A stretch of 62,296 bases of DNA, filler included, from Catajapyx aquilonaris (Eukaryota), in NCBI GenBank assembly GCA_000934665.2. It is 3 parts of 3 records of this genome, joined end to end, with 100 filler letters (N's around TTAATTAATTAA, not from the genome) between each part and the next. Parts side by side here need not be neighbours in the genome. Positions count along the whole stretch, not along the records: positions 41,603 to 62,296 come from JYFJ02006213.1; 2 more parts are not named here. The stretch is one strand, 5' to 3'. Below the pieces are notes generated by a model. The model was not told the origin of the DNA. It made no database searches and worked only from the letters and a program-made list of their open reading frames with translations. Both the position numbers and the translations under genes were made by a program. Below, piece by piece: positions 3,384 to 62,116 of the stretch; position 1 is the stretch's first letter; every line of letters starts with the position of its first letter.

Positions 3384-6066
3384 TTACATTTTAGTATGAT
3401 CGCGCTCATACGAGTAGTGTCCTTTGGGATTGTCAGTACACATCATGCTGTCGCTGGCGTAACTGGTGCTGGTTGACATTTGAATGGCCGTGTCCGACAG
3501 CTTTCCAGTTCGGTCAGTCTCATTTCGTGCCCGTTTTAGTGCCCATCCGAGGCACCAGCTGTTCCTGGACAAGAAGAGCTCCTTGAAGGTGCGCCTAAAC
3601 TCCCTGCTCATGGCGCAGTACAGGAGGAAGTTGACCGCACTGTTGAGCAGGATCATTGTCTCCAGCAGCCTCTGCATGTAGGTGTAGCACAGGGCGAAGG
3701 ACCGGGAGCGCCAGATGACCACCACCAGCACCAGCACCCCCTGAGGAAACTCGGTCAGCAGGAAGAGGACCAGGACGGACATCACTATCCAGGTGGTGCG
3801 CTCCATCTGGCTCTCGAAGGGAGACCTTTGACCTTTGACCCGCCTCCTCCTTCTCTTGGCCTCCACCAGTGCCCACACCAGCCTCAGGGTCAGGAAGGTC
3901 AAGGCCACGCAGGGAACCAGCTTGACCACCACACCCAGAAGCCAGTAGTTGACCTCCTGGGTATGGCTGATTTCTCCAGCTGACTCGCTTTTCCTGGAGT
4001 TCATGAACACGGCCAGGTAATACCTGCTGTACTCATCCACTCTGTAGATGATGTACGAAGGGATGTGCACCAGTGTCACGCAGATGTACACGCTGACCAC
4101 TGTCCACTTGGCCCTTCTCTGGTTGCACCACCCTTTGCTCCTGTGGGGCCAGCACACCATCAAGTACTGCCACACTGCCAGGGTCACTGTCAGCCAGATG
4201 GACACAGCGTGCATCACCTGAGTAATAATGGTTCTGTATATTACAACTTTATAAAGCAATCGCAACAACCGGTCATTATTGTTGTGTTTTACCTATTGTG
4301 TAACTGCAATTTAGATAACTACTTGTATTATCTGTAATATTAAAATCGTATTCGTGTTGTATGTGTTATGATTGGTCCGCCGCATATTGTTACCGCGACT
4401 CTTTCTGTTGGCCCGTGTTCAGCGCATGCGCAATGGGTGAAGGACCCATTCAGTTGCATGTTGACCGCCGGCGGGTGAAGGTCGGTGTTCGTCTCTCCCG
4501 TCACCTCGACCCTTTCCCCTTCTCCACCCACACCTACTTTCAAACTGCGCACCCTTACGGAGGTGGGAGGGGGAAGGGAGAGGAGTATGACGCTATTGGT
4601 TGTTGGGTGGGCATCATGAACTACCAAATCATCACCGCGTGACGCAGGCCTAGAAAAAATCGAAGCGAGTGGTTTTATAAGCCTGCTCCGTAGAAAAATG
4701 CAAGCGAATGAGGATTTTTTAAGTAAGTTATACATCAAATTGGGTCTGGGCGTCTGTTTGTCCGCGGTGAGTCATCAGTAATGTGCGAAGAGGGAGGGTG
4801 AGCCATCTATGCTAGAGAGCTGGTACTACGTCCACTGTCCCCATCCTATGTGCCATGTTCCGTACCTTATGCAGAGAATAGTGAGCTATCCAAAACTCAG
4901 TTCCGGTGAAGCCATCCGAGAGTCCCTTGAGTCCGTAGAGGAATGGAAAGCGACTCGTGACCTGTATGGCGACGAAAGGCACGTAGGCCAACATGACTGC
5001 CATGTCCGATACGGCCAGTCCCACCAGGATGATGGTCGTAGGGGACACCATCCGTCTCCTGGTGAGGACCAGGACGCAGAGGACGCTCAAGACGCACCCT
5101 AAGACGCAGATGGTCAGAGTGAGCCCAGGGTGGACGTGGGACGTGAAGTACAACATGGACTGCTTGAACTCTCTCGAACAATACGTGTGCTCCACCTCTG
5201 GCATGCTCGTCGTACACCCGGCGTGTTCCGTCATGTAGTACGTCCCGTTTGTGTCACACTCCTTCGTCTCTACTTCCGCCCTGTACACGCCTGTCTCCGT
5301 CATTCCGCTGTTGCCCATGTAGGTTGTATTCTCTACACCTGTTGTACAGGAAGTAATTAGTGTGGTGTCCATTTTGGTGTCAATTTCTACAAAAAAATAG
5401 TATAGAACGGTTCTGTCCGTCCGTCTGTCTGTGGACAGGTATCAGGGCCTAAACCGCAAGAGATATCCACAAACGGTTTTCGGATTCGGCATACCCTAAA
5501 CAGGTTACATGGTCAACTTCCGGTGACATGTCACTTCCGGTTTTCCGGGTTCACTCTATCAGCTACGGTCAAGTCTACAGGTGGGCAACGATTAAGCATA
5601 TGGAAAGCAGAAAACGTTGTGTATCCTTTGTTAATTGTATGTGATTGTTGTTCAGTTGGAATTTCCTTACCAATGATAAAAAAGTATACTCGAATCACTC
5701 TCGTGTGATTTGCCACTCTTGTTCTGTAAGATGTTCATAAAGTAGTACGCGCTATGCTGGTAAAGGGGCATGTGACCATTCTTCTGCATTGGACATACCT
5801 CTGGTGATATAGGTGGAGTTCGTGGTCGTGCCGACATATTCCGTATGCTCCGTGTCGTCCGACTCGTAGTCCACGTAGTATCCCCAAGCTTCATAAATCC
5901 AGTCTTCGTAATAATTTGGGGAGTCGTTGTTATTCTTCCCCGGAGGAGGAGGAGGAGGAACTGGTGGTGGAGGAGGAGGAGGAAGAAAAGGAAGAAAAGG
6001 CGGAAGTGGTGGTGAAGGAGGAGTATGCCGTTGTGTAGGAGTCGCAATAGTGCTTGTTATAGCCAT
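3384..6066 (-). CDS. DmsR/myosuppressin-receptor-like class A GPCR (copy A). Exons 6066-5799 (Pro-rich, less certain), 5386-4866, 4217-3384; minimal model starts at ATG 5372
   Basis: Motifs VLTRRRMVSPT..LAVSD, HAVSIWLTVTLAVWQY, LFLLTEFPQG, LLNSAVNFLLYCAMSREFR. Phase-0 intron at 4218-4865 (AAG|GTACGG..CAG|GTG). A phase-1 intron at 5387-5798 joins the Pro-rich exon in frame. Confidence 0.85.
4330..4815 (+). mobile_element. Non-autonomous repeat (possibly Helitron-like) in the GPCR-A intron; right boundary approximate
   Basis: Begins TATCTGTAATATTAAAATC; the following ~100 bp resembles 19815-19930. It expands this intron to 648 nt versus 59-87 nt in paralogues. Confidence 0.45.
5405..5580 (-). 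mobile_element. Fragment of a DINE-1/Helentron-like interspersed repeat
   Basis: Reverse-complement match to 35302-35473, including a GTCC/GTCT microsatellite core. Confidence 0.6.
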
Positions 6067-6611
6067 CTGCAACGGGAAACATGTAGCCAAGAACATTAAT
6101 TGGTTAATATTAGTATGCATCTCAGAAGAACAAGTCCGGTACACTTCTTGGTCTGCTGTAGCACTATTATTAGAAATAATATTCGAACAGCGTAACAACC
6201 TGTAATAACTACTGTTCATGCGGGTACATAACGTGGACTAGGTAGGCCTACTTACCTCGTACGTTCTCAGCAAGTACTCGGCACTAAACACGCTTCTTAT
6301 CCTTGCACATCTCCCCGACTGCAGTAGTTAGGCCCTATTAGTGAATGTAAGGGATTGGTACCGTACAAGCCACGCAAGAAACTGCGTCAACAAGGGATGG
6401 GCAGACCCAACACTTCCTCATACATCAAGGTGCTTGTCTCCCTCTCTCTGTAGGTCATCAAAGGTGAGACCTCCATCTTGACCATCACGTCCTCACAACT
6501 TCATGTGCAAGAGCTATACTGGTTTTTTCAAGGTCGACTACGTACAGAAAAGTTCTATTAAAAATATAATATTAAAGGCATGCATGATTGATGATGATAA
6601 TGTTTATTAGT

Positions 6612-6612
<1 letters not shown>

Positions 6613-6687
<75 letters not shown>
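6613..6687. repeat. (TTA)n microsatellite
   Basis: About 25 perfect TTA units. Confidence 0.95.
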
Positions 6688-6892
6688 GTAAACTTGCCCA
6701 TGCTCCAAATAATTCACGCACATGTTCGTTCAAATTGACTGACATATACAAACCATTGTTTAAAAGCAGTTGCATAATGGTGTCAGAACAATATTGTCCA
6801 TCGGAGTGTGTAAAGTGACATATCCGACAAGTTGCTTCCAAAAGTACAGAATAATAACTTGGTTACTTTGCATCACCTGCTACCCAACAGTA

Positions 6893-8178
6893 TTATAGGC
6901 TAGCGTTGTGCATATTATCTGAATGGACTAACCTGACTGCTAGAGCGGGTTCTTCGCGATCGTCTTTTGAGTGTCCGGGTGAGTGGTCACCTGAAATGTC
7001 ACTGGGATCACTAGTGGTGGGGCATATTTCTGGTTGTGTCCCGACACTTCCAGCGTCATTTTGTTTATTGGATTCCGTCATTGGGCAGGTGAAGCACTTA
7101 TTGCCACACACTCCTTCTGGAACGAACGTGTCTTTGAAGGTGTTTCTAAAATCCTTGCTCATCGAGCAGTACAGGAGGAAGTTGACAGAGCTGTTCAACA
7201 GAACTATGGTGTCCAGAAGCCTCGAAATGTAAAGGTAGCAGCTGTGGAAGTAGTTGTAGCCCCAGATTGTGACGAGCAGAGTGACTATTCCTCCTGGAAA
7301 CTCGGCGACCAAAAAGACGAAGAGCACAACAACCACCATCCTTGTGGTCCTGTCCATCCGGCTGTCAACCTCGACATTACTGTCCACTGGCCAGTTCCTG
7401 TTACCCATCAGAAACTTCCTGATCTTCTTTGCTTGGAAGAGTGCCCAGACCAGCCTCAGAGTCAGGAGGGTCAGGAGGATGCAGGGGACCAGCTTGACCA
7501 GCACTCCAAGGATGAAGTAGCTGACCAGAATGCTCAAGTCAAGCCCACCGATGGTGACATTAACCATCGACCTCCTCAAGTCCATTTCGTAGTAAGATCC
7601 GCGCGTGCCCACCTCGTAGATGAAGTAGATAGGGATGTGCACCAGTGTCACGCATATGTACACGCTGACCACTGTCCACTTGGCCCTGGTCTGGCTGCAC
7701 CACTCTTTACACCTGCTGGCCCAACACACAACGAGGTATCGCCACACAGCTAGGGTCACGGTCAGCCAGATGGACACGGCGTGCATCACCTGAAAGGGAA
7801 AACTGTAGCAACCGGTCTTTACTTATATCATGAGAACAGCACTAAAACCTTGTTCCAAACGACGTCGATGATCGTGTACGCAGTCACGGAGAAAGATGGG
7901 GATATTCCTTTCAGCCCATACTCTTCCTTGTCACCAGACCATTCCTGCAAGGCGGCGAAAGAGAGATAGACCATCAGCACCAGAAGGTCCGACACGGCCA
8001 GTCCCACCAGGATGGTGCTGGTGGGGGACACCATCCTCTTCTTGGACAGGACGACTATGCAGAGGATGTTGGACACGGAGCCCAATATGCACAAGACAAT
8101 GGCCAGGTGAGGATGGACAAGTCCAGTGAACTTGTTCATAATTAGAATGAAATCACTGCTGCACAAATCGTACCCCAT
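6893..8178 (-). CDS. DmsR-like GPCR (copy B); exons 8178-7849, 7789-6893
   Basis: Same family motifs (HAVSIWLTVTLAVWRY, RTTRMVVVVLFVFLVAEFPGG, NSSVNFLLYC). 59-nt phase-0 intron at the conserved position. The MGYDLC start aligns with MRYEYC of copy D. Confidence 0.88.
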
Positions 8179-8837
8179 ACCGTACTCTTGTTGCCCTGTA
8201 TAGTCCTCAAACGACAATCTTTCACCCAACCCCAGCCTGCAACTAGTGATGAAATGACAAAAAAAAAGTGCGTGTTTTACTTCGTAAGTGTAATTTGCCT
8301 ATCAGGATATCAATATTGTCATAAACCGGATGCTAATCAGGGACAAACAATGGGATGGACATGAAGCCTCGTCATGGCTGTATATAGACTGACAGATTTC
8401 GTAACAAAGGACTCGTCGTATTTTAAAATGCGGAAACAGCACTAATTATTAGAAGTAATAATTAAACCTTCAATTGGCACTCCACTGAGACGGGTTTTAA
8501 GCACAGATGAAGCGACCCCCAATGGCGTCATTTACGTATGACGAATTATCTCGCGAATTATGGTTGGTCTGCGACGAATATTAATATTAATAATCTCAAT
8601 ATTATTCATATTAATGACAGGCATATTTTTACACGAAGCGAAGACTGGGTAAAAATGTACTGCATTTTTTTTAAATCATGCAATAAATTTATGAGGGTAG
8701 GCAAGTTGCGCTGTGTGAAGGACGCGACTCTTACGTGACATGCATTTCGTCACTTGCACAAGGTTGGTCTGGCTGGTGAAGGCGACGGAGCTCAGTGCAC
8801 GTCCAGACGCGTCTCCAGAGGGACTCTTCTTCCTAAA

Positions 8838-44163: not shown

Positions 44164-45317
44164 TTATTGCGGTTGATTTCTCAACTTATTTTTTAGTGGT
44201 TCGTACATTTTTCTGAACGTGTTCAGTTCAGTCACAAACGTGTCAAGTTCGGCCTCGTCGTTATCCTCTATGAAAACCAGCATATTACAACACGCATCCT
44301 TTGCACTATCTTTCTCTTGGTCCGAAACCTCGTCACAACCGGTTGTTGTTTCCAAAGCACGCTTCAGTTCCAACACATAATTCTCCAGATTTAATTTGGC
44401 GTCGACCCTCTTCTCTAACAACAATTCCTTTTCGTGAAAAAATCTCAGTTCTTCCCGTATTTGCGACATCTCGTTGTCGCTCGCTGAATGTGCCTTGCTG
44501 TTGGTGAATGTGTCTCTTTCTCCAGAAACTTCTTTGATAGCACGAACAAGGAGAATTCCGTTGGGTTTTACTCGGCATGTGACTTCAGCCTTATGGTTAT
44601 CGTTCTTCTTGCGGACAACCACCTATAGAAATAATAAATGGAAGTCAAATATTAGTGTAATTTGCAAACTGGCCAATTATCAATCATAAACGACATGAAT
44701 TGACAATACTTTCCTTAGCCACTACTGGTTGCAAAACTGGACAAGTTTCCTTACTGTGTAAATGACCCAAAATTTAATACCAAACATTGTCTACTTACTG
44801 GTATTGTGACTTCAACACGGCGGCCTTCTGAGCTCTTCCAGTTCCCATTTTTGTTAAATTTTACAGCGGAACTTCTCTCTAAAATTTGCAGCGTGCTTTT
44901 GGTGTGATATAAAAGCAACGATAATGTGTTGTGGGCAGGATCTCTGGTGTCTGGCAATATGTTATGTTGTTCAGTAATCTCCAACTCTGCAGCATGTCCA
45001 GAGATGACCTCTTGGTCATTGGCCACCCGAGAGATGCTTACATTCTTGCCATCAGCCTCGTTTTTGGCATGGGAAGTAGGCCTACTGTCAACACTGGTTT
45101 CTGTGAGAGCTTGTCCCTGCTGCTCTTGATGATGGCCTTGACTGGAGCTTTTTAAGTCATATAATTCTTTATCAGTGGGACAGTACCAGTCCTCCTCCGA
45201 AAGACTCCTCAAACTGGTTAACGTGGCATTCTGGCTGCTGCCATTCTCTTGCTGTGTATTTCTTTCATAGCGGATGAATAAAGACTTAATTCTGGCCCAC
45301 CAGCCATTCCACGCCAT
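44164..45317 (-). CDS. Hsp70-derived G2: no NBD; low-complexity N-terminus, last SBD strands and helical lid; exons 45317(or 45389)-44799, 44622-44164
   Basis: VTCRVKPNGILLVRA, DAKLNLENYVLELKR, CCNMLVFIEDN (cf. Hsp70 AKNxLESY and lid helices); phase-0 intron after VTIP. Confidence 0.7.
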
Positions 45318-46834
45318 TTTAACCTCGCCTTGTGTTCCGTGATTGGAAATGTCAGCAGTTTCCCAGTGGTCCAGGCTCAAGAAGGAAGTCTGAAAAATAG
45401 GCATTTTATTGTCTTGTGGTCATTGAGTCCGGACTTCATTATTTTGGTAGTATAAGGCATTGTAATAAAATGAGTAAGAATATTTTAAAATGAATTTAAA
45501 TCATGAAGTGATTCATTTTATAACGAGAAACATTTAGAGTTTCCTACCTCATCGGGCAGTCCGGATGTGTTTGGAACCTCTTGTCAGTTATTGCTCTCAG
45601 TGTCCTCTTCTGAAAACTAGTCTTTAACAAACATGCCTACCTTTGTTTTCCGAACAACCTCAAAGCACTGATTATGTCACCTCCGTATATGGAATGCTAT
45701 CAGAAACCATTCTCCTTTGCTCTCATTATCTCGTTACCATAGCATTCATGTGTATCTTTGATGTCTGGAAAGTGCCAGAAATAATATATCAACTTTTCGC
45801 ACTGAACTGCGGAAAAACAAATTGCAAGCAATAAGTGAAACCACAATTTTTATGTACTGCGAAGTTGATGCAAATGACATATGACGGCAGCACTGGCTGA
45901 AGTGGGCTAAACAAACCATTGAAGCGGTTTGTTTACATGTGTTGTCACACGAAGACCTTGGGACTTGTATGGTTGCTTTCAAATGGCAATGATTGAAACA
46001 ATTAGCAAGCAAATTTTTAATTATTGTAAAGAACAATAGAAAATTTGAGGCGAAAGTCATTTGCCAAATCAGGTTGTGTTCATGGGAAGAATAAATGCAA
46101 CAATAAGGCATGGTGCAGGGACTGACCGCGTGTGATTGTAGCAGCACAATTTATACACAACTGTCCTTTCCTGTTGGAGAGTATACTGTTCCCTTACATG
46201 CCTAAGTGCTAATGAGACGTATACGTGTGAAAGCTGTAAAAAAACCGAGCATATCATCGATGTGTAATGTTCTTTTAAAAATACGATAAATAACAGTGGG
46301 ATAAGTCGGATATTTTGATAAGAAGGAATTACTTTTAAGTTACTACAAACATTTAAATAGCTAATCATCAGGGGATTGGTATTGAATGCTAAATATAACT
46401 CTCGTTATCAAATGATACTTAGCCCTTTCAACTTTATGCATGCACGGTTTCTATGGCAATAAGATAATGAACCAATGTACTCGTAAAAAGATGGTTGTAT
46501 CAGAATGGCTTTCCTCATCCGAAGCTCCTGGAAGTAACAGGTGATTCTCTGTTGAACACCTTGTGTTATAATCATTATTCTGCCTAACACTTTTGTGTTC
46601 CACTATTGAGGCGTACATTTTTACTATTGAATAATTTGTTTTCACGCATATAATTATTACATCAGAATATTCCGCAGCTGCAGAGCAACCAGTGTGTGCA
46701 AAAAATGACGGAAATGGCACCTGCAAGAAGACCTGTGTTTGGGATGGACCCTGCCACTTGGAATTACGGACATGCTGAGTGTGTGGATAGTTGAACCAAT
46801 TAAGTTCGAAGTAATTAGCAGCGAGCCTGTGACA

Positions 46835-47851
46835 ATGGCCAGTACCAGGCTTCTTCAGAAATATTCCAATGAGAAGAATCAGGAAGTCTGTCTGGCCAGG
46901 AAATTGGACAGTTATGCAGACGCACAGGCCAAAACCACATATCGTCTTGCGGGATCACGTTACTGTGACACCATTACCATCCCAGGAAACAACAAGTCGG
47001 AAAAAGCAGTGAACACTAAGGAAGATGGTAACAAAATCAGCGGTCACAATGGTGCCGCAACACTTTGCAAGGCGGAGGACTTGTCCCAAGGCCATCGAAG
47101 CATCATCAACAGTCGAAGCCTGTTCCTGAAGTTCGGAGAAGGACATTTTCTTATTTGTAATAACAATTTTACGACTCAGTTCAACCGGCAGGTTACTTGC
47201 AAAAAATTGGACGCAAACTGGGCCTCCATCAACATACCTGTGAGTACTGTCTATTTTATTAGTTATAAAAATGATTTGTTATGAAATAACATAGCTTGAT
47301 TAAATAATTAATATCATAATTGCGTCATACAGAAGATCGGTCTGTAGGTGATTTTTCTATTTATTCCCACTTTGACATATTTTCAGAAAGAGACGAATGG
47401 AAGAGCAGGGAATGCTTCCAGTAATATTCGTATGAATGTCATGACCGTCACTGTCGATGCCAACGGGATCTTTCATGCTGAAGCTGCCAAATCATTCAGA
47501 GGGAAACGTTACATTGTCATACCGCAAAAGGCAGACACCCAGAGGAAATCCGAGTTATCAGAGATGACAAAGGAAGCGACGATATACCGCGACCAGGAAG
47601 CAAAGAAGAAGGATGCGGAGGTGGCCAAAGCAAACTTGGAGAAGTACGTGTACAACTTGAAAAGAAAGTTGGAAGCAACAGACAATGGCGACATAATTTC
47701 CGATGACTATACACGACACGTGCAGGATCAGTGCTACAAAATGCTGGACTTTATAGACGAAAACGAAACCGCAGATAAAAACATGTTTGTATCTAAGCTG
47801 AAGGAATTCAGGAGAATGTTTCAACCACTGATGAACAAGTTGGGAAAATAA
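46835..47851 (+). CDS. Hsp70-derived G3: no NBD, lid-only; exons 46835(or 46772)-47239, 47387-47851
   Basis: VTVDANGIFHAEA, AKANLEKYVYNLKR; phase-0 intron after INIP, as in G2 and G7. Confidence 0.72.
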
Positions 47852-48490
47852 TTGGGCTTCATTGTGAAGGTTATTTTACACTGTAGTTTCATGTTGGGAT
47901 TAATAAAAAAATACATGCTGACATTATTACACATTATGTTTTCTGGCATCGTGAAACATTATGACTCTGTTCAGAAATAATTAAAATAATGGCAATATTT
48001 TATCTACTAGTTGACACACATTGTGGTAAGTTACATTACGATTATCATGCATTTAAAATGTGCGCATTCTTGAATAATGTTAATTAGGTACTGCTCGTAG
48101 ATTATGTTTAACTTTTCCATCACGATTAATTAATTACACTTTAGGGTACATTTTATGAAAAACTTCCTGGAGTATGACCTCCGGATTGACTGCACGGAGC
48201 AAACAAAGATAAGTGCTTGGAGAATGACGATAAGTAAGCAATGAAGCCAACTGATCATGATTACCTCTAAGATATACTAGTGCTATCACGTGTATCGGTT
48301 ACTGTGGAAGCGCCTGAAGAGACAGTAAGGTTAGTATGACTAGGGTTATTCAGTATGTCTGCTCCGTACAGTACATACTGTTATAGGTCATCTTTAATGA
48401 CATGTGACTTTTTCATACATTCCCTGGCGTGCGGTGACTGCAGTCGACTGGTAAAGAGGTGACTGACTGATTGACAGTGGAAATAGGAGA

Positions 48491-51412
48491 ATGGCTGGGA
48501 AGACCATTGGGATTGACCTGGGCACCACCAACTCTCGAGTGGCAGTCTGGCACGAAGGTCAGGTGAAGGTCATTCCAAACAAAGAAGGGTATCCAGCTAC
48601 ACCAAGCTATGTCACTTTCAATGACTCGGAAAAACTCGTTGGATCAGCTGCCAGGCATCAGGTGAAAACATACTCAAAACATACTAACTTACATAATTAT
48701 TAAGCATCGAAATCGCCTAATATTACGAGAGTTTTACCTTTGCATAGACCACACTAAATTGCTAAATATATTCATCGATCTGTTCTTGCAGATATTTCTG
48801 AACTTGAAAAAGACAGTGTTTGATTCGAAACGACTGATTGGTCGGACTTACCAAAATGTCTGCAGAGAAAGCGACCAACTCAGGAGGTTCTGGCCATTCC
48901 AAGTGGTCGAAAAGGACGGAAAGGCTGCCATAAAAGTTGGACGCGACACATTAAATGCGGAGTCTGTCGCAGCGATGATTCTGGAACAGCTGAAAGGAAC
49001 AGCTGAAAAGTTTTTGGGTGCGAAGGTAACCGGCGCTGTGGTGACGGTACCGGGCACTTTCAACGACGCCCAGCGACTAGCGACGATCGACGCTGCACGT
49101 GTAGCCGGATTCGAGACTGTCCATCTTATTAACGAGCCAACTGCTGCCGCCTTAGCTTACTCAATTGATAGCAGGAATAAAGAAAAAAGAAACGCCCTTG
49201 TGTACAGCCTTGGAGGAGGGTCATTCGACGCCTCGGTGGTCAAAATGGACGGATTGGACATCCAGGAGTTGTCCACAGCGGGAGATCCCTGCATGGGAGG
49301 AACAGACCTTGACATAGATCTGGTAGAGTTCGTTGTAAGAGAAAACCATGAGCCGTTGAATATTGACACATCCGATATTAAGTCTCTCATGATGATAAAC
49401 CGGGCCTGCGAAAAGGCAAAGAGAACTTTGTCCGCAATTGATGAGGCTTATGTAGCAGTGGACAGTTTCAACGAAGAAAACGATTTATGTATGAAGGTAA
49501 TACTGCCGTCCTTTATTGTCCAGAATTTAGATTCATGTTTTCTACTGCTTTCAGATTACGCGACATCAGTTGGAAAATGTGTGTCAGGACTTTATTCGCC
49601 AAACTGTAGAAAAAGTCGAGGAGGCTCTCAAGAAAGCCAAGATGAGCAAGCAGGACGTCGATCACATTATTCTGGTGGGTGGGTCGACTCTAATTCCTAA
49701 GATACGCCAGGTTGTCCAAGACCTTTTCCCTGGCAAACCGCTTTGTAAAATCGTCGATCCGACTGAAGCAGCTGTGCGTGGGGCTGCCATACAAGCTGCC
49801 ATTATAAGTGGAGAAAATATTGACATCGAGGAGGAGCAAGAGGAGAGGGCAATTCGACCTGAACAGATAGACATGCTGTACTCGTACCACATGCGATACA
49901 GCGAATCTCAAGATGAGAATTCGCAGGCTTCCAATGAAACCGAAAGTCAACCAGGAGACATTCCGCCCATTGGCATCCGTTTGGGTGTCATGTCCTCGCA
50001 AGTAGCCGTCTGGATGAATGGCCATGCTAATATCATATTAAACCGTCATGGAGAAACAAGCACGCCTAATTACGTGGCATTTACTGAACATGAGCGGCTC
50101 ATTGGGGCTCCAGCAAAGGCTCAAGTGAGATACCTCTGCTTTAATGTTTAATGAACATTTCATCATGTCGGTTTTACCTACATTTCAGGTGGAGGTGACT
50201 GCTGAGAATACTGTATACGACATGGCACGTCTGATTGGCCGGCCCTACGACGATCCAGATGTTCTGAGCAACTTGAAGTCCTGGAGTTTCCATGTTGTGA
50301 ACGATGGTGGTAAACCGTCCATTGAAGTCCAGCATCAAGGGGAGAAAAAGCGATTATACCCCGAGCAGATAAGTGCAATGGTCTTGGCCAATTTGAAGGA
50401 GACAGCAGAGACACAGTTGAGGACAAAGGTGATCGATGCAGTGTTGACGGTACCTGCTTACTTCAACGATGCCCAAAGACAGGCGACCAAAGACGCGGGA
50501 CAAATAGCCGGCCTGAACGTACTGCGAATAATAAACGAGCCAACAGCAGCAGTCATTGCTTACGGATTGGAAAACAAGACGGAAGAGATCAACGTTTTGG
50601 TGTATCACCTTGGACGAAGCACTTTTGAGGTCACTGTGATTGGTGTCAAAGATTCGTCGTTCAAGATTAAGTCAACATGTAGTGACACCCACTTGGGAGG
50701 GATAGACTTTGAAAATCGAATTGTGGATTTCTACGTTGATATGTTGAAGAGCAAGCACAACAAGGACATCACAGACAATCGCAAAGCCATGCAACGATTG
50801 AGAGGAGCCTGCGAGGAAGCCCAAGAAACACTCTACCAGAGCAGGGAGGCATATGTGACTGTTCGTAACTTAGGCGACGGAATCGACTTAAACCATGTGG
50901 TATGCCATAAAAATTATTTAGAAATGTTATTGTCATATCAGAATTCATACATGCAACATTTAATATTGCAGATGTCAAGAACGAAATTCGACAGCCTTTG
51001 CCTGGACCCTTTTCAAAAGACGTTGGATTTGGTGCAGCAAGTTCTCTCAGACGCCAATTTAGATGTCAGCAAGATTGACGAGGTCGTTTTGGCGGGCTGT
51101 TGCAGCCGAATTCCGAAAATACAGAGCATGGTGAAGAAGTTCTTCAACGACAAAGAACTCCTAAAGAACATCCGTCCAGAGGAAGCAGTTGTCATCGGAG
51201 CTGCTAAACACGCCGCCATTCTTTACTCCATGCAAGCTCATTATGAGACCGAAGATGAGAACCAACACAAGACCCAATCAGATGCAAATGCATCGCTCAC
51301 GTATCGAATGCAAGATTCTGGACCACAAGATGAGGAAGTCACAAAGGAAGCATCCGAACCGCTGGAAGATCTTCTCCAGTACAGAATATCATCTTTCATA
51401 GACGACGATTAG
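48491..51412 (+). CDS. Hsp70-like G4: two tandem NBDs and an acidic tail, no SBD (~865 aa); exons 48491-48661, 48792-49496, 49555-50124, 50189-50899, 50972-51412
   Basis: All introns GT-AG and phase 0. Exon 3 runs in one frame from the end of NBD1 ([11 protein letters not shown]) into the start of NBD2 ([14 protein letters not shown]). Confidence 0.85.
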
Positions 51413-51584: not shown

Positions 51585-51897
51585 ATGCAAATTTTCAACA
51601 TTCAAACCCAGCTCTTTACTACTCACCGAACAGAATGAGTTTCATTTTTCATGAAACAGTCAAAATTAAGACAGTGAAACTTCCAAGAGAAATGATCTTG
51701 GTATGCAGCAAAATCCATCCTGAAAAGCGGCATCCTTTTTATGTGGCACTGCACTGGCGAGAATTTTTACACCAGTTCTACAATTTCATCAACAATTTGA
51801 TCAAAACAGGTCCAGATATCAGCACAGGAAAAAATAATGCGCACTTTATCTACCTGTCTTGCATGTCGATTACTACTTTTAATGTCATGGACACCGT
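51585..51897. repeat. Duplicated non-coding block
   Basis: 51585-51755 matches 58612-58762; 51828-51895 matches 62223-62291. Confidence 0.75.
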
Positions 51898-52445
51898 GCA
51901 ATGTTTCCATTTATCATAGATTAGTTATCACGCTACCATCGCAACCAAGACGGTGCCGTGCACTTCTGATTAGATTTGGGCCTCTCCCGCGATATTCACA
52001 ACTGCCTAAAATAGTTATGACTGCAGAAATAATGACAGATATGACAAAAGGATGAGACAATTGATTGGTGATACGAAAAACCTGTAGTCACTTTAACATG
52101 AGACATTATAATTCAAATAAGCCTAAAATGCCACTCTTAACAGCACCGTGCCGAAATTAACACTTTATTAGGAACACACTCACTGGCAACTTATATCAAT
52201 AGCCTATAACATTCATATGGTCGAAATCGACATGTTCTAATTGTGCTGCTACATAACATTGCCCATTAGGCTCGACCAGTCCTTTGCCTTTTTTAAAGTA
52301 CGTTCAGTTTTTTCTCGAGCATTCCTGTGCTAGCCGCTGGGTTATCATCAATCCACTGTAAGACAGTCTTGCACTTATGTGTCAGATTAATACTATCTGT
52401 GCTTTAGGTGTGACCTTTCCAGCACATGTCCCTTTCAGTTCGTTT

Positions 52446-55400
52446 TTAAATAATACAGCATTTTGTTTTAGTTCTTCTGGAATGAGCTTTTCTCTTTTCT
52501 TCCTCCCTAAGTAGCTCTTCTGCTCTCTTCTTCTGTTCAAGCTCCTCATTGGCTAAAAATTGAGCTTTTCTCTTTTCTTCCTTCCTAAGTAGCTCAGCTT
52601 CTCTCTTCTTGTGTTCAAGCTCCTCATTGGCTACAAATTGAGCTTTTCTAATCTTTTCTTCCTCCCTAAGTAACTCTTCTTCTCTCTGCATCTTCTCAAG
52701 CTCCTCTTGGCTGAATCGCGACCTTGCATTCCTTATTATGGTTATGCTATTTCTTTGGCCAAATCTGGCTTCTTCAGCGGTGACATGGAGGATTCCATTC
52801 TTGTCCACTTCAAACGTGACCTGCAACTCAATAAGTGGCCCTCCTGGTTGAGCAGGTACGCATCTCAAGGTAAATTGATCGAGATAATTGTTTTCTCCTA
52901 TCAAGGTGCTTTCTCCTTCATATATCTGAAAAGGAAGATATAAAAATGATCAAAATTTTATTAAACAGTAGCGTATAAATTTTGCAACACTCACACGTAT
53001 ACTAAATTCCTTTCGGCCATCTTGAGTTGTCGTGAATGTGTGTGTATGTATACATGGTATTGTCGTGTTTTTCTTCAGCATTGGAAACATTCTATTCCCA
53101 TCAACCTGTATCCCAAGGGACATGGGGATCACATCCTCCAGCGTCACTTCGTTTATGCGATGATCTTCGTCATCACCGTGAAGAACAGCCGCTTGCACTG
53201 CAGCTCCGATGGCAACAGCTTCTTCTGGACTGACGTTCATACAGAGCTCTCTGTTGGCGAAGAACTTTTTGACCATTTCCTGTATTTTGGGGATGCGAGT
53301 GGAACCTCCAACCAAAACAACGTCGTCAATCTCACTCTTGTCAACCTTGGCTTCCGACAGAGCTTGGCTTACAATATCCATCGTCCTTCGGAAAAGATCC
53401 CCGCACATGTCGTCGAAACGGGATTTTGACAACTGCAAGGTAAGGTATTGCAATATTTAGAAATAGCGACAACAATATTATTTTAACATTTTAATGGCCC
53501 ACCCTGTGCTTCAAGTCCACTCCATCGATAATGTTATCTACAGTGACATATGTCGCAGTATTGTTGGAGAGAACGTGCTTGGCATTTTCACAGGCCACCC
53601 TCAGCCGCTGCATGGCCTTGTGATTTCTCCTGATGTCCATGTTGTGTTTACTCTTCAACATGTCGACATAGAAGTCCACCAGTAGGTTGTCAAAATCTCT
53701 TCCTCCCAAATGAGTGTCGCCGCCGGTTGATCTGACCTTGAAGGTCAGGCCTTTTATGGTCAAAACTGTGACGTCGAAAGTTCCACCTCCGAGGTCGTAT
53801 ACCAGAACATCGGTCTCTTTTTGAGCCTTGTTTTTCAATCCGTACGCAATAGCCGCTGCTGTTGGTTCATTGATAATTTGGAGGACGTTCAGACCAGCGA
53901 TTTTCCCTGCGTCTTTGGTCGCCTGTCTTTGGGCATCGTTGAAGTAGGCAGGGACAGTCACCACTACGTCGGTCACCTTCGTCCGCAGCTGTCTCTCTGC
54001 CGTTTCCTTCAAATTGGCCAGGACCATTGAACTAATTTGCTCAGGGTAAAACAGCTTACACTCTCCCTGGTAATTGATTGAAACTCGAGGTTTACCATCT
54101 CGGTTCACCACAGGGAAACTCCAGCATGATCTGATGTCCTTTTGGATGTCGGGGTCATCGTAAGTGCGACCTATCATGCGTTTGGCATCAAACACAGTGT
54201 TCTCTGGAGCCACCAGAATCTGAAATTTATTTGTAATGTCGCATGTTTGAATTGGATGTAAGAAAAAGTGGACGAACAACTTTTTCATATTTTCTGGAAA
54301 AAATTAATCTGCTTTTGCTCACCTCTTTCTTGGCTGCATCCCCCACCAATCTTTCCAGTTCAGTAAACGATACATAACTCGGGGTAACTCTATATCCATC
54401 CCCGTTGAATAGTATGTCGACCACGCCATCTTTCCACACGGCGATGCAAGAACAAGTGGTGCCCAAATCTATGCCTACTGCTGGTCCTGACGCAATTGGC
54501 TCCTCTTTATGGCCTGACTCAATCTTAACCTGAAACCGTAATGAAAGTAGTGTTTAATTTACTGCCACATTTGATGCAAAATGTTCCAACAAAAAATGTC
54601 TAATAATAATTGTTAAAGAATGAAAAAACTCTTAGGCGAATTTATTTATTTACTCTTCACTCACCTTGTCACTTTGGCCGGTATCGGATCTGTCCTGCTC
54701 TTCTTCGGAGGTGACTTGATCCGCATGTCTTCTCGTTTCCTCTAGTTGCCCTCTTTCGGAAATGACATCGCAATGCAAATTATGACCTAACATATCGGCA
54801 GAAAATCGGTACTGAGACAGGTCAGGTTCCGGCCTGGTAAAATGTTCAGGGCTGACACGTTTGTTGACCTTTTCCTGGACATCCTCTACTGCCTTTGCCT
54901 CTTCTGAAGTGGAAGTTTCTCTGTCCTCCTTTGGCTTGTCTGTCACGTAAAAAGAGGTTGTTAATTATTGTGCAAGGTTTGCAAGATTCTAGTCATGTCA
55001 CCTGTCACTTCCTGTGAGCAGTTTATTCCAGAAGAAGCCTGTTTTTGCGGTTGTGTGCTTTTATTTTCATCTTTTTCACTACGAGGAAAACTAATTGCTT
55101 CTATCCCGGGAGTCAAGAAACCTCCTTTTATTTGAATCCTTTTGTTGAGCACAGCACCAAAAACAGCGGCTCCATACACAACTACTTCCTCTGGTTCTAT
55201 GCACTGGTCCAGCTCTTTTAACTGGAAGTAATCCTTCACCATCTCTCTCAACTTTGGTATTCGTGTCGACCCACCAACCAGGATAACGTGCTCTATTTGA
55301 CTTCTCTCTATTTTGGCCTTCCTTAATGCACGTGACACTACACTCAAAGTCGCATTGAACGTGTCGATACACATTTCTTTAAATTGCCGCCTAGATATCT

Positions 55401-56420
55401 ATGACATTAAGACAAAAGTCACTATAAACCACCAGCAAGAATTATGTATTGGTGTTTACCTTGTAGTTGAAATCATAGTTCTGGCTGAGTTTATCGGCGC
55501 GTATGAAGGCCTCATTTTCTAATGACAGTGTTTTCTTGGCCTCTTCGCAGGCAGGCAGTAGCTTCCAACGTGCTTCCGGATCACCCTTCAAATCTAGCCT
55601 TCTTTTCTGCCAAATCATTCCTAAACAGTGTTTCATAAGAAGTCCATCTAGGTTTCTCCCTCCAAGATTAGGATCACTCTCGCTGCAGACCACCTTTGGG
55701 TTGAGGTCCTTCACATTCAGCAGCGACACTTCGAAGGCATAAGTGCCCAAATCGTAAACCAGGACATTTTCAACGTCCTTCACATTCTTTTTGTAGCAAT
55801 ACCCAATAGCAGCCGCAGTGCAATTGCTAATTACGTGAAGGTTAATTATATTGGCCATTTGTGCAATCTCGCTTGTTGTTTGCTCTTTTTGAGTCTCTTT
55901 GAAGTAACCGGGTACAGTCATTACAGCGTGTGTGACATTATGACCCAGAGAGATTTTTGCGTTTTTCATCATTCTTTCCAGCACAAAGTACATGATGTTT
56001 TCTGGGTAATACCTTTGGTTCTTGATGCCTCTTTCCACACAAATCTGCGCTTTGTCCGGCGGAAGAAAGACTGTAAAAGGCCAATGATGTCTGTTGTTCG
56101 GCGGCAGAGAACCGTCTTTCTGTCTTCCAACCAGACGCTTCACATCAAACACCGTGCTTTTCAGATTCCTGCCCATCTGCAATAAAGAAATTTCAGAATC
56201 ACTTAAAGATACCATTTTGAAAATTCAATCAAACCTGTATTTTGGCAGCTCCTCCAATTAAGATTTCTGAGCCGACAAAGGACACATAACTGGGCGTACA
56301 AAGCTGTCCTTTTGCGGAGTGGTCCGGAATAATATGGACTTCTCCATTTTGGCACACTGCAATTCTGGACTCTGCCGTTCCCAAGTCTATCCCAACAATA
56401 GAATGATTTTCAGAAGCCAT
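52446..56420 (-). CDS. Hsp70-like G5: degenerate NBD, acidic linker, canonical NBD, SBD-beta, charged repeats, CaaX (~1138 aa); exons 56420-56235, 56176-55460, 55398-55002, 54939-54665, 54529-54323, 54219-53503, 53432-52995, 52925-52446
   Basis: Phase-compatible GT-AG introns give one ORF. NBD2 retains [34 protein letters not shown] and GGSTRIPK. Ends TKTKCCII*. Confidence 0.82.
52480..52710 (-). repeat. ~78-81-bp coding tandem repeat (3 copies) of an Hsp70 helix-A/B-like segment
   Basis: [27 protein letters not shown] / [26 protein letters not shown] / [23 protein letters not shown]. Confidence 0.85.
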
Positions 56421-57012
56421 TGTATGGATTCAGGCTTCAGGAGCAATCTCCACAGCTATAGGCCTACTGTGGAGATACAATTTCCACCTTATAATTATCA
56501 CAGATGTATTATCTTATTGGCTTAGCACCAAGATGCCCAACATAGATTAAAATAATCCTATGCTTGATAATAATCACAAACTCCCAATCACACGACAGCA
56601 CCTTATAATCCGGGTGCTAACGGTTTGAACTTTGTATTTTCTGAGAAAAGTATGAAACTCGGTACACTCATTCTTTGGACACTTCTGAGCATATCTAGAC
56701 GTGGGGCCACGATGGCCGACCACGCCGGGGGTCAGCAGGGTTGCCATGTCTATCAGGTGCAGCATCATTTAGGACCTTGCATTCGGTCGCCACAATTAGT
56801 CACTTCTGAACATGTTTGGAAGTGGGGCCACTATGCTATGCTGTGGGTCACACGAGGGGGGTTGCCTTAGACGCAATATTATTCTAACGAGCGTGTCATC
56901 TCCCCCATGCATGTTAAATTGCTGGTTGCCCACCCCTGGAAGATCTGCCATGTATTGCGGGTTGCATACCCCTGATGGATCTTATCACCTGTAGGTATCG
57001 GACTCCGATTTT

Positions 57013-58130
57013 TCACACTACTGGAAATGTTACACGTTTAAAATGGAATATTGCATTCCATTTGTTCAATATTATTTTTTGACAAACCACCGTATACTTA
57101 CAGAGAATATGATTGTGGCCAGGATCGTTACCCTTCGCTATCACTGATCTGGCAGCTTCACGTTCGAAATTATGACTTGACTTTTGACTCATGCTTTTTC
57201 CACTTAGGTCAGGTTTGTCAGGAAGCAGCGGTTTTTGGATGTTTTTCTTTACTTTGTTTTTAATACAAGTGGAAGAACTGCACAGACCAAACTGGTTGGA
57301 CGGTTTATGAGAAACAAATCTGATCATAATTATTGCACTGTCTATATGTCGCCAAGCACACCTTGTACAGCTGCTCCATAGACTGGGTCTCTTCCAAGGT
57401 CTCTTCGCATTGTTCCAGCTCTTTCAAATTGAAGAAATCTTTCACCATATCTCTCAGCTTTGGAATTCGTGAAGATCCACCTACCAGCACCACGTGCCCT
57501 ATATGCCTTATTATTCTATTCCGGTCTTCGAGAGTGCAAGAGCCACTAGATCCAAGGTCCTTCTGATCATGCCAGTGACCATGGCTTCAAAATCTTTTCG
57601 AGGAATCTGTAAGAAACAGAAAAACACGATGGCGTACGTACCTAATTTGCACCAATTGGCATGTATAAAATGTCACCTTGCATTATTTTGCTTGAGTAAT
57701 AGAATACTGTAAATGGATAGCAAAAATGATGTCGCTCAAAATCTTCATTTGCCAATAGATACTTATTGCATAATGCTGGTACATTTTTTATCCAACAATT
57801 TATTTTAGAGAATATTAAGAACACCAGGCTAGTTAGCTCGTGTTTTATATCTTCACCAACTGGTAAAATAAATAAAAAATTGTTTTATGGACTCGATATT
57901 TTTACTTCCCAATTGGCATACCATAGTCGTATCTTGCAAAAGAAGTCGTCGCCGTTGAGAAGACAAGGAACATTTACCGTTGTCTAATTTTGGAGGGAGA
58001 GTGTTTTCTTGGCTCTCTCGCAGACTGGGTAGAGCTTAGACAGTGCTTCGAGGTCATTCCTCAAATCCGTCATACAAGTAGTAGCCTCGTCCAATCAATC
58101 GCTTCACTTCAAACACAGTGTTCACAGAAT
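57013..58130 (-). pseudogene. Hsp70-like pseudogene G6 (decayed paralogue of G7)
   Basis: Fragments NTVFEVKRLIGRG, KLYPVCERAKKTLSLQN*, VLVGGSSRIPKLRDMVKDFF and KPDLSGKSMSQK, with stops, frameshifts and a large NBD deletion; intron homologous to G7 intron 2. Confidence 0.8.
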
Positions 58131-59336
58131 GATGCCTAATGACTGCAGCAATAACACTTGAACTGCCATAACAATTTACTGCCACAAATGAAGACGCGTA
58201 TGTCCCCCAACAATAATAATCATTTCTGTTGACGAGAATCGCGAAGAAAACTTCCCCTCTCCAGTGAAATGCGGTCAATACTTCATTAAATTGTTGCTCC
58301 AAAAATTCAACATGCTCATGATGTCACATTCATCAAGGCTTGATTTACATCGACAGAAAATTCAGGACGCCGTTTTTCTGAGGATGGATTGTTGGAAGGG
58401 TATGACAGAAGAACTGAGACGATGAAAGACAACTTTTACTCAATATAACATTATATATTGGTAGTTTGAATTACCAGAAAATGTCACTCTTGAAAGTATT
58501 TGCTGAAATGATCAGGTTATTTGGAAAACACGTTGCGATCTTTTCCGAAGGATATTGTAAGCCAAGCTATGTCCCTAAAACTTTCTTTGGCCATTGAAAA
58601 TGAGAGAAAATTTTGCAAATTTTCAACATTCAAGCCCAGCTCTTTACTACTCACCGCACATAATGAGTTTCATTTTTCATTAAACAGTCATAATTAAGTG
58701 GAACTTCCAAGATAAATGATCTTGGTATGCAGGAAAATCCATCCTTTTTATGTGGCACTGGCTTAAATTATTACACCATTATGGGAGTTTTACATATTGA
58801 TGAATTTTAATACGACACACTGCTACAGTATGTCCACGTTCTCCAGTTATTATTAGACTAGTGTTTTTTCAAGATGTTATCTGCCCACTTGTGGTTATCA
58901 GTAAATGCACGAGGGCAGCCATTGCAGGTCGTCTAGAGGTCATAGCAACCTTGACTTTCACAATTTATTACATTTGGTGTTGGTAGAAACACTGTCCATC
59001 ATAGTTGTATTATAAGAAATTGGAAAAATTACGGAAATTTACAAATCTGGGATTTAAAAACTTACGGTCATGTGCTTGGTAAGGAACACATCCTGATCTG
59101 CATGTAGCACGGACTCTCTTTAATGTGCAGTACATATATTCTCACCCCAAATGCATATTTTATTGCAATAAACAATTTTACGAAATAAGGTGTTACAATA
59201 ACATCCTTGACAACATCAGTAAGTGAGCATATTTCTTCACTCAAATACGGATCAACAACAGAGCGATTTTTAAGCCCATGTTCTAGTTTTGAGAATTAGT
59301 TAGTGTCAGTACGCAGTGCTGTTTCCATATTGCACG

Positions 59337-62116
59337 TTACTGTTCCAACTTTTTCCGAATTGGTTGAAACCTTTCAGTAAACTGGTCCATAGCATCAAGA
59401 AGAGTGCACATTTGGGCCTGATAGTTTACCTCAAGAAAGTCCAACATTTTATAGCACTCATTCCTCGCCCAATTCTTCTCTTCTTCGGATACTCTGTTGC
59501 CTTCGTACGCTGCTTCAACACTACTCTTGAGTGAATACACGTAGTCCTGCAATTTACACTTGGCCGCTTCTTCATCAGTCGTCATTTCTTCCTTCTTGCG
59601 GAAGAGCAATGCTTCCTTCTTCATTTGTAACAAATCAGCCTGTCTTTCCGCGTCTGTTTTGCATGTCGTATGATGTAGAATTCCGTTGGAGTTAATGCTT
59701 AAAATTACTTCATTCCCACTGACACAACCACTGAATGCAACCACATCCTGAAACTGAATGAAAGACAAGGTTTATTAGTGGGCCTATATGAAAAATTGGT
59801 AATATCGTTGCGTATCATATTATGTTTGAAAAAGTTCGGTACACTTACAGGGACTGTGATTGTGACACGTTTTCCCGCCAACTGCATGGAGCTAGACACC
59901 TCTTTATTCTGTGTAATTATTTGCAAAATTCCTCCACTGTAATTAACACCAACTTGTGTACTAAGCTCGTTCCGTTGATTAACCATCGGTTTGCACGTCT
60001 TGGCTGGCTGCTCTCTTCTTTTGACCTCTTTCTTATTGGACATTTTGTCACTTTTACTTATGCTCGAGCTGACCTGATGATTGTGTAATTCGTGGGATAT
60101 TGGTCGATACGGAGAGGACACGCTCATGTTTCTTCTTACAGTGGGTTGGGTTCTAGGATATATTCCGCCAGTTTCTCCGTGTGTTTTGCCTCCTGTGTTG
60201 TGTATGGCAGTATCTTTCTGTATCATCCCTGCGACGGAGGTTTGTTGGAATATTGTCGCATGAATATTCTGGTCATGGTCATTACCTTTAGTTTTTTCTG
60301 ATCTGGCAGCAGCTTCGAGTTTGCGATTGGGACTTGTCCTTTGAGTCATGTCTTTTCCACTTACATCAGCAGGTTTGGTATTGGGAAGCGGCGGATTTGT
60401 TTCCTTTACCATGTTTTTTAAAGGAAAAGAAGTCCTGTACATACCAATTTGGTTGCCCTGCAAATACGAAACGCCTTTGGTCATCATTGAACTTTTGCCA
60501 ATGGCACCTTCCACAGCTGCTCCATAGACTAGTACATCCTCTGGTTCTATGCACTGGTTCAGCTCGTGCAAGTTGAAGAAATCCTTCACCATTTCTCTTA
60601 GCTTTGGAATCCGTGTAGATCCACCAACCAGGACCACGTGCTCTATTTGGCTTCTTTCTAATCCGGCCTTCGACAGTGCACGTTCCACTAGATCCAAAGT
60701 GACACTGATCACTCCAGTGACAAGTCTTTCAAATTGTTGCCGAGAAATCTGTAGAAATTGTAAAATCATGCTGGAGTACTTAAATTGGCAATGAAATATG
60801 CCTACATATGAAAGATCACACTCATCTGCTTGGGAAAGAAAAGTGATAGTTAGCAAATATTATGATGTTGTCCAATTTTTGCATTTCCAAATTTTTGAAA
60901 AAAATTGATAATGTTGCATAATTCTGTTAATTTTTTCCGAGGTATTTATGAACCATGGAGAAACCAAGCCAGTTAGTTCGTGTGTTATCATTACTGAAAA
61001 TATCCCAAAGTGGTAAGGACATACATTTTTTTGCTTCCCAATTCTTCACCGATTGTATCAGGCATTCGTACCTTGCATGTGAATTTGTAGCCGCTGCGAA
61101 GTCTATGAACTGTTATAGTCGTCTCATTTTGAATGGAGAGTGTTTTTTTGGCTTCCTCGCAAGCTGGATAAAGCTTAATCCGTGCCTGGAGGTCATTACG
61201 CAAATCCAGATTCTGAATTGTCATAATCTCAATTAAACAGTGTGACACCAGACACCTGTCCAATATCTTCCCTCCCAGCATAAGGTCATTTTGGCTTGCG
61301 ATGGTCTCAACATGAAAGTCGGTCACTTTCATCACCGAAGCTTGGAATACGTACGTGCCCATGTCATAGACCAGCACATAGGTCTCGTTCTTCAGGCCCT
61401 TATTGTGACAGTAAGCAAGAGCAGCGGCAGTGCAGCTGTCGATGACTCGAATAAGTCTGATCTTGGCCATGTCTGCCACTTCACTCGTCGCTTGCTCTCT
61501 TTGAAACTCGTTGAAATAAGCTGGAACCGTCATTACTGCTTGGGTCAGACCGAGACGCAAGAATTTCTGTGCGTTACTCAGCATTACTTCTAGCACCTGG
61601 TACATTACACTTTCCGGATGATACGTCCTCTTGCTTCTGCCTATCGTCACTGAAATACGGGCTTTACCGGTAGTGCACGACAGCAATTGAAAAGGCCAGC
61701 CAAAATTTTCGATTGGTGGAATGGATCCGTCGTGTCCTCGACCAATCAGACGTTTCACTTCAAACAAAGTGTTCTTCGGGTTGGTGGACATCTGTGAGAT
61801 GCAAAGAGGTGAAGATAAGCAGTAAATAAATGGCATTATTTTTAAGCCCCATTTCGACCTGTTAGGATGGTTTAAAATATTTAGATTCAATTACGACCAG
61901 CTTATTATTAATTCAGTTATACTGTATACTCACCTGTTGTCTGGCCAAGTCTCCAACGAAGATTTGATTGTCTCTGAAGGAGACATAACTCGGGGTGAAT
62001 TTCTTTCCCGTGTGTGAGTTTGGAATGATCTCGATCTTTCCACCTTTCCACACTGCAATTCTGGACTCGGAAGTACCCAAATCGATCCCAGAAACAGGTA
62101 ACTTCATTAAAGACAT
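59337..62116 (-). CDS. Hsp70-like G7: degenerate NBD, ~190-aa low-complexity insert, lid (~737 aa); exons 62116-61934, 61791-61072, 60748-59849, 59747-59337
   Basis: [49 protein letters not shown]; all introns phase 0 GT-AG. Confidence 0.85.

Follow-up and report, generated by a model that had tools for sequence, protein, structure and literature searches.

An Hsp70-derived gene of Catajapyx aquilonaris with two nucleotide-binding domains and a predicted lipid anchor read out of frame from its own lid

How far can an Hsp70 depart from folding once its lid is gone and its end has been rewritten? The question is raised by a gene of Catajapyx aquilonaris (assembly GCA_000934665.2) in a 62,296-nucleotide stretch of DNA, here called the window, which joins three parts of this genome; positions 41,603 to 62,296 come from record JYFJ02006213.1. 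A cluster of Hsp70-derived genes spans ~41,600 to ~62,100 of the window, and the gene in question lies on its minus strand. Eight exons, separated by seven introns that are all GT-AG (7/7), give a frame of 1,138 amino acids with 0 internal stops. This frame runs through two nucleotide-binding domains (NBD1 and NBD2) with a linker between them, the β part of one substrate-binding domain (SBD-β) and a charged helical repeat, and closes in the CaaX box CCII. A reading made from the sequence alone (the sequence-only reading) had proposed a double-NBD Hsp70 with a charged repeat and a CaaX end; the open frame and the sequencing-run contigs, which match it with 0 differences, confirm that description, and its interpretation as a whole is partly supported. 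Our best explanation, in which belief and doubt are about evenly balanced, is that this is one gene for a membrane-tethered, Hsp70-derived ATPase switch or scaffold and not for a folding chaperone.

A close paralogue lies on contig C6507 of the same genome, with 87.7% DNA identity over 4 kb and a product of 1,156 amino acids. The two genes share eight exons, both NBDs, the NBD1 lesions at positions 175, 202-204 and 206 (Hsc70 numbering throughout) and a Phe at position 438. The paralogue differs in having a single helix unit and a whole lid, and in ending with VMSQHN* without a CaaX box. The Pfam cut-off for PF00012 was exceeded by all four NBD/SBD exons tested (4/4), and exon 4 gave no Pfam match. 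Since exons 2 and 6 are each 717 nt long and the intron positions match between the two NBDs, the second NBD is a duplicated genomic segment. The double NBD is an older trait of this gene family. The gene is composed as follows.

56420-56235, 56176-55460, 55398-55002 and 54939-54665, minus strand: exons 1 to 4.
54529-54323, 54219-53503, 53432-52995 and 52925-52446, minus strand: exons 5 to 8.
55200-56420 (lower bound approximate), minus strand: NBD1, most likely a pseudo-ATPase, in exons 1-3 (residues ~1-390).
54480-55200 (approximate), minus strand: polar, acidic linker of ~147 amino acids (residues ~391-537), in the 3′ part of exon 3, exon 4 and the start of exon 5.
53170-54480 (approximate), minus strand: NBD2 (residues ~538-918), in exons 5-7, with intact catalytic motifs, E268/K271 and GGSTR among them.
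52713-53170, minus strand: degenerate interdomain linker (INEVTLEDV) and SBD-β (residues ~935-1050) with Phe976.
52479-52712, minus strand: three tandem units, each made of lid helix A and the first part of helix B, of 81, 78 and 75 nt (residues 1051-1128); the paralogue has one unit.
52446-52478, minus strand: polybasic stretch and CCaX, the last ten residues, with Cys1135 and Cys1136, in frame-shifted DNA of lid helix B.
52237-52445, minus strand: decayed lid remnant in the 3′ untranslated region, from the remaining helix B to the old stop, covered by a contig of sequencing run X5.
52164-52169, minus strand: AATAAA, a likely polyadenylation signal, also present in the paralogue.

Contigs of three DNA runs from one sample cover 51855-52783 with 0 differences and 0 gaps, one of them reaching 53301. 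Run X5, from another sample and another study, gave a 950-nt contig equal to 52235-52925 plus 52995-53253, again with 0 differences and with the predicted last intron removed. The join 53432/53503 is spliced in a second X5 contig, and a 218-nt piece is identical to 55882-56099 in NBD1. X5 reads as RNA because both joints are missing from the DNA runs, and it is taken as RNA-like solely from these two joints, no RNA run on record having come up in the run search; its contigs cover 15 of 30 bins, the covered bins excluding the joins 55002/54939 and 54665/54529, a gap that counts neither for nor against these joins. The last exons of the gene are expressed, and the last exon is transcribed as predicted. 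Because the stop codon lies in what is, as far as seen, the last exon, nonsense-mediated decay is not expected. An assembly error as the source of the frameshift is ruled out by exact matches to the tail in four runs and two samples. Skipping 18 nt between a GT and an AG would bring back some of the lid, but such a stretch is too short for an intron and was not seen in X5.

Both the repeat and the tail come from the gene's own lid. Aligned to the paralogue, the charged repeat (Tandem Repeats Finder: period 78, 2.9 copies, 87% matches) is helix A and the beginning of helix B of that lid, present three times. Behind the third unit the alignment has a net loss of 8 nt, and the helix-B DNA that follows is now read as the ten tail residues, while in the old frame the same DNA still reads as a run of 16 residues. 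Behind the new stop the released lid continues to the old stop at 52237, with a 2-nt insertion, an 8-nt insertion and one nonsense codon relative to the paralogue. The lid was not exchanged for foreign sequence: part of it was amplified, part was re-read and the rest was released into the 3′ untranslated region. The earlier idea of a lid replaced by a charged repeat was thus correct in that the protein is lidless and wrong in that nothing foreign took the lid's place.

In the shifted frame the paralogue DNA reads RGTGKICLICS, and most outgroups suggest that the present stop codon predates the frameshift; for these two reasons the fresh frameshift probably ended in CLIC*, Cys at −4 and Ile at a2 being there beforehand. 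A new mutation as the source of the CaaX Cys was rejected, since its codon is identical in the shifted frame of the paralogue. Shifted frames in the last exons of 27 paralogues gave 325 stops, of which 17 have a Cys at −4 and five fit C-x-[VILM]-X. The origin of the CaaX box is a lucky draw of the frameshift.

The present end, CCII, fits the pattern C-x-[V/I/L]-[L/F/I/M/V]. So do only six of 2,291 distinct open-reading-frame ends (at least 40 amino acids; window and fetched loci), this one included, and among the six only this gene's end has more than one Lys or Arg in the preceding seven residues (it has four). The basic patch and the Cys at a1 form a putative second membrane signal. Prenylation was judged from yeast CXXX screens. 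In the screen of all 8,000 ends against geranylgeranyltransferase I (GGTase-I), a score below 0.2 at 37 °C marks 137 of the 8,000 ends as strongly de-enriched, mainly canonical geranylgeranylated ones; at that temperature CCII scores 0.022, the CVIM of K-Ras4B 0.045 and CLIC 0.55 (PMC11304957). In the farnesyltransferase heat map, where the cut-off is 3, CLIC lies above it at 3.74 and CCII has 2.62 (PMC10320760). By these scores in both screens, the tail appears to have changed from a farnesyl-type end into a geranylgeranyl-type one. The CaaX assignment of the sequence-only reading thereby gains a class, with CCII among the canonical geranylgeranylation motifs, and its further suggestion that such an end can bear both prenyl and palmitate has a counterpart in brain Cdc42, a CCaX protein (CCIF) whose first Cys is geranylgeranylated and whose second is palmitoylated (PMC9868626). 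By these sequence tests the gene product is a predicted GGTase-I substrate.

The coding part has been maintained. Two frame-breaking insertions and a nonsense codon have accumulated in the ~210 nt of released lid. The coding part of 3,384 nt has 0 breaks, where the rate of those insertions predicts ~32 (lower 95% bound 3.9). The pairwise ratio of non-synonymous to synonymous substitution rates (dN/dS) against the C6507 paralogue is 0.50 for NBD1, 0.36 for NBD2 and 0.68 for SBD-β; the repeat units have no synonymous excess. On this gene's own branch, the NBD2 and SBD exons tested carry 30 non-synonymous and 18 synonymous changes (ratio of the corresponding proportions, pN/pS, 0.48; p = 0.012 vs neutral), and the branch of the intact paralogue has a pN/pS of 0.56 in the same exons; both values used one outgroup, with 28 further changes unplaced. 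Purifying selection acts on both NBDs.

The tail differs from the paralogue at 10 of 33 nt, compared with 18 of 150 directly behind the stop (Fisher's test, p = 0.014). In the new frame all ten differences are non-synonymous and none is synonymous, and the third codon position is hit by none of them (0/10, p = 0.017). Placement with 25 of the 27 outgroups puts seven changes clearly and one probably on this branch and one probably on the paralogue's, with one left unassigned. Three basic residues were gained and one lost, a Cys was put at a1 and an Ile at X. The branch-wise p value for the seven to eight tail changes ranges from 0.0008 to 0.09, depending on the neutral rate. This pattern is suggestive, and not proof, of a directed change of the tail after the frameshift.

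Two further places within the gene were noted. Exon 5 contains a segment near the start of NBD2 (54386-54449, minus strand) in which up to 14 of 33 sites differ from the paralogue, exceeding the CaaX tail; it is a candidate variable surface. In exon 4 a QYRF motif (~54790-54815, minus strand) is kept in the paralogue within the unconstrained linker, and it resembles tyrosine motifs in the linker and tail of a neighbouring gene.

The head was compared with solved Hsc70 structures (PDB 1yuw, 2v7z, 1hpm) and with an Hsc70-like database sequence. The residues that we take to be catalytic in an NBD (D10, T13, K71, E175, D199, T204, E268, K271 and G339) are those of a canonical foldase in NBD2 and not in NBD1. 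NBD1 retains D10, T13, K71, D199, E268/K271 and the GGSTR (adenosine) loop and carries T14A, Y15E, E175N, G202T, G203Y, T204A and D206E; to judge from these substitutions, it is most likely a pseudo-ATPase. At the positions of the four leucines of Hsc70, the interdomain linker behind NBD2 reads V-T-L-E and is no longer the hydrophobic linker of a foldase. Changes of this kind in the interdomain linker uncouple the domains of DnaK.

The substrate pocket is altered as well. Position 438 is occupied by Phe (Phe976) here and likewise in the paralogue. The search pattern recovered the pocket segment of 18 genes among 30 loci, and the remaining 16 of them have Val or Ile there; the open pocket with Val438 is absent from this protein. 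V438F is the standard substrate-binding mutant of HSC70, in which substrate binding is substantially reduced (PMC7392334). The sequence-only reading had called SBD-β intact, which holds for the fold and fails for the pocket. Neither the helical lid (helices A-E) nor a C-terminal EEVD is present, the lid remnant lying behind the stop. The protein belongs to the Hsp70 superfamily and does not pass three of the tests for a canonical foldase.

Between this head and the tail, charged residues make up 58% of the repeat region, where 77 residues contain 39 Glu-Lys/Arg pairs at i,i+3/4 spacing. A single-sequence structure model gives one helix of 86 residues (block pLDDT 94-98 over most of it), predicted to be ~12-13 nm long at the usual rise; the β part of the model is of low confidence (block pLDDT 43-65), with only half the domain lying in the last exon. 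Exchange factors of the Hsp110 type embrace the NBD of a partner with their SBD and long lid. An Hsp110/Sse1-type role does not fit NBD1 on this criterion, there being no SBD or lid behind it.

The course of events begins, as the sequences show, with the duplication of a two-NBD gene within an expanded, fast-evolving Hsp70 family, followed in this copy by triplication of the unit of helix A and the start of helix B and by the net 8-nt loss that put helix B in a new frame. To judge from the outgroups, the new frame probably met its stop directly behind a farnesyl-type CLIC, and later substitutions, possibly under selection, added basic residues, the second Cys and the terminal Ile of a geranylgeranyl-type, palmitoylatable CCaX. 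In the mechanism that we propose, GGTase-I would prenylate Cys1135, palmitate may be added to Cys1136, and acidic lipids would be bound by the basic patch, while the charged helix of ~12-13 nm would keep the head off the membrane. There NBD2 would cycle ATP, and NBD1 may act as a non-hydrolysing module for interaction or regulation. Lacking lid and EEVD, and with Phe in its pocket and polar residues in its interdomain linker, such a protein would serve specific partners, in signalling or defence, and no general clients. A large, clustered, fast-evolving and modular family fits a defence role; signalling and stress handling are further candidates. The fullest form of the proposal, a prenyl and palmitoyl anchor born by frameshift from the protein's own lid and positively selected from farnesyl-type to geranylgeranyl-type, on a two-NBD membrane switch (a pseudo-ATPase and an ATPase borne on a stalk of one helix) used for signalling or defence instead of folding, is offered tentatively, and we lean somewhat against its being right in every part.

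Several observations weigh against the proposal. The linker and the helix units are without amino-acid constraint (dN/dS ~1.0). The tail window was chosen after the fact; three of 123 non-overlapping 33-nt windows also reach 10 mismatches and are as divergent as the tail, the all-non-synonymous pattern by itself gives p = 0.06, and seven changes at the higher neutral rate give p = 0.09. The Cys at −4 and the Ile at a2 were latent in the lid DNA, so the origin of the motif needed little luck. The prenylation screens concern yeast enzymes acting on a Ydj1 reporter and the Cdc42 data are mammalian, neither being about this protein. Among 31 distinct Hsp70-type C-termini read from this genome, a CaaX box occurs in one, and a Cys at −4 in this gene only. 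The case is one gene in one species: no orthologue came up in the database searches described below on which conservation of the box could rest, and the closest paralogue is without one. No partner or pathway is picked out by the present data.

Part of this would be expected if the gene were kept for its NBDs and the box were a frameshift accident, perhaps prenylated, with an anchor that is not selected. A neutral by-product of this kind agrees with the CLIC proto-motif latent in the lid and the 17 of 325 shifted-frame stops with a Cys at −4, with a family rich in truncated and shuffled members, and with the three equally divergent windows. It sits poorly with tail differences that change the amino acid in 10 of 10 cases and spare the third codon position (p = 0.017), with the direction of these changes toward a basic patch, CCaX and a geranylgeranyl-type X, and with a combination of motif and basic patch found in no other of the 2,291 ends. 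We regard this explanation as unlikely, though with a substantial share of the remaining doubt.

Membrane tethering could also serve folding after all: a lidless, anchored holdase would bind unfolded clients close to the membrane, in the way that farnesylated J-proteins carry chaperone activity there. The catalytic motifs of NBD2 are intact and SBD-β is in frame, and lidless plant Hsp70s have been proposed as holdases in a report whose main text mentions neither CaaX nor prenyl groups (PMC10687569). Such a role is hard to reconcile with a Phe at V438, which in HSC70 substantially lowers substrate binding, with Asp and Thr at two arch positions, with two of the four linker leucines now polar and with the dN/dS of 0.68 in SBD-β. 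We consider a holdase improbable, and the ATPase switch or scaffold remains our preferred reading of the head.

That reading presupposes a single gene. The locus might instead hold an NBD1-only gene followed by a single-NBD, CaaX-ended Hsp70 starting at Met483 in exon 4, given that this in-frame Met occurs in both paralogues and that NBD-only genes are present in the cluster. Splice sites and frame are, however, kept in both paralogues, and the linker is open in both, its indels being multiples of 3. Frame is broken by 12 of 13 intron indels against 0 of 2 indels in exons 1-7, both of which are 3 nt long. The paralogue reads through exon 3, intron 3 and exon 4 without a stop, and exon 5 has no Met ahead of the start of NBD2. 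The neighbouring exon at 49531-50151 joins the end of NBD1, a linker and the start of NBD2; since these lie in a single exon, tandem NBDs exist in this gene family independently of any splice reading. This comparison of sequences indirectly favours one gene spanning both NBDs and leaves little room for two. A transcribed pseudogene or an assembly artefact, to which the several frame breaks at the 3′ end might point, is scarcely credible in view of the exact tail match in four runs and two samples, of breaks that all lie at or behind the new tail and of the branch pN/pS of 0.48.

Other Hsp70-derived genes and features of the cluster are these.

48470-51412, plus strand: a second double-NBD gene, without SBD or lid.
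44164-45419, minus strand, and 46709-47851, plus strand, divergent: each seeming to contain an unrecognised polar region, the last SBD strands and a whole lid, with no NBD seen nearby.
~59300-62098, minus strand: an NBD1-type domain, then a lengthy polar insert and an end made up of lid only; most of SBD-β is apparently missing.
~57300-58400, minus strand, just upstream of the double-NBD CaaX gene: a disrupted NBD copy that contains stops and shifts of frame.
~56500-56845, directly upstream of the start codon of that gene: a very high-copy element, with a summed contig depth of 4,000-8,200 vs ~50.

This genome as a whole has at least 46 SBD/lid-like matches, of which 30 loci were fetched. A database search for orthologues with the last exon yielded five Hsp70s, distant and of the ordinary kind, from 8,000 longer candidates, and nothing from 4,628 candidates of about its own length. 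In the search with the NBD2 exon, the best 150 of 41,349 matches were at most 62% identical and contained no orthologue, and the ESM Atlas gave only leads below 0.9, to Hsp70 fragments. Literature searches found, by titles and abstract starts and among the papers listed, no Hsp70 with a CaaX box of its own; subscription journals and preprint supplements, which lay outside these searches, may hold a precedent. Phrase searches returned neither "prenylated hsp70" nor "tandem nucleotide-binding domains" together with hsp70, and where the papers searched connect prenylation with the Hsp70 system, it is that of J-protein co-chaperones.

If the protein is lipidated, an Hsp70 can be directly anchored and turned to non-folding work. 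The locus preserves the state before (the paralogue), the state after and the discarded lid side by side. It thereby offers a clean, testable case of a targeting signal arising from an alternative reading frame, in which the probable CLIC and the present CCII can be compared with each other and with the lid of the paralogue in one assay; so far the case consists of a single gene from a single species, with a selection signal in the tail of 10 sites.

Compared with known systems, the protein resembles an HSPA8-type Hsc70 in its homologous NBD2 and SBD-β and in the catalytic motifs of NBD2. It differs in the extra N-terminal NBD, most likely a pseudo-ATPase, in the polar interdomain linker and the Phe at V438, in a lid that is part-triplicated and frameshifted, and in a CaaX box in place of EEVD. 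At its end it is like brain Cdc42 (CCIF), with which it shares CCaX, the Ile at a2 and a hydrophobic X, and like K-Ras4B (CVIM), with which it shares a polybasic stretch followed by CaaX; both of these are small GTPases, and the likeness is confined to the last ten residues. An immune factor, ZAP-L (PARP13), likewise combines an inactive enzyme domain with a CaaX box that moves the protein to membranes (10.1101/2021.06.22.449398); it is not homologous and is of use solely as a parallel to the proposed defence role.

Databases contain uncharacterised Hsp70s with tandem NBDs from sedges, rushes, an amphipod, a nematode and other organisms; some of these entries may be fused gene models. Trinorchestia KAF2354849.1, Carex XP_078150809.1 and the entry P0024, all uncharacterised, have two tandem NBDs before one SBD as here, whereas they keep the lid, have no CaaX box and are not close relatives; some of them may be fused models. 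In Juncus, Carex and Rhynchospora the annotated two-NBD Hsp70s (P0011, P0012, P0013, P0015, P0018, P0114) may be a parallel family or repeated fused models.

Another lidless Hsp70 with a CaaX end occurs in a protist. Five of 201 fetched proteins have a Cys at −4, and one of these has a canonical-type end: the "heat shock protein 68" of Histomonas meleagridis (XP_067771266.1). A search with this protein gave 41 others, none above 44% identity, and no conserved group of CaaX-ended Hsp70s was found among them. The sequence-only reading had known of no canonical Hsp70 with such an end; none turned up in the papers searched, and this database entry has one. Like the Catajapyx protein it is a lidless Hsp70 with a low-complexity extension in the region of the lid and a CaaX box, CIIF; it differs in having one NBD, an N/Q/E-rich tail and no basic patch. 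Its CaaX end is by all appearances of independent origin. If the anchoring proposed here is true, the two proteins together would make lipid-anchored, lidless Hsp70s a recurring and so far undescribed type.

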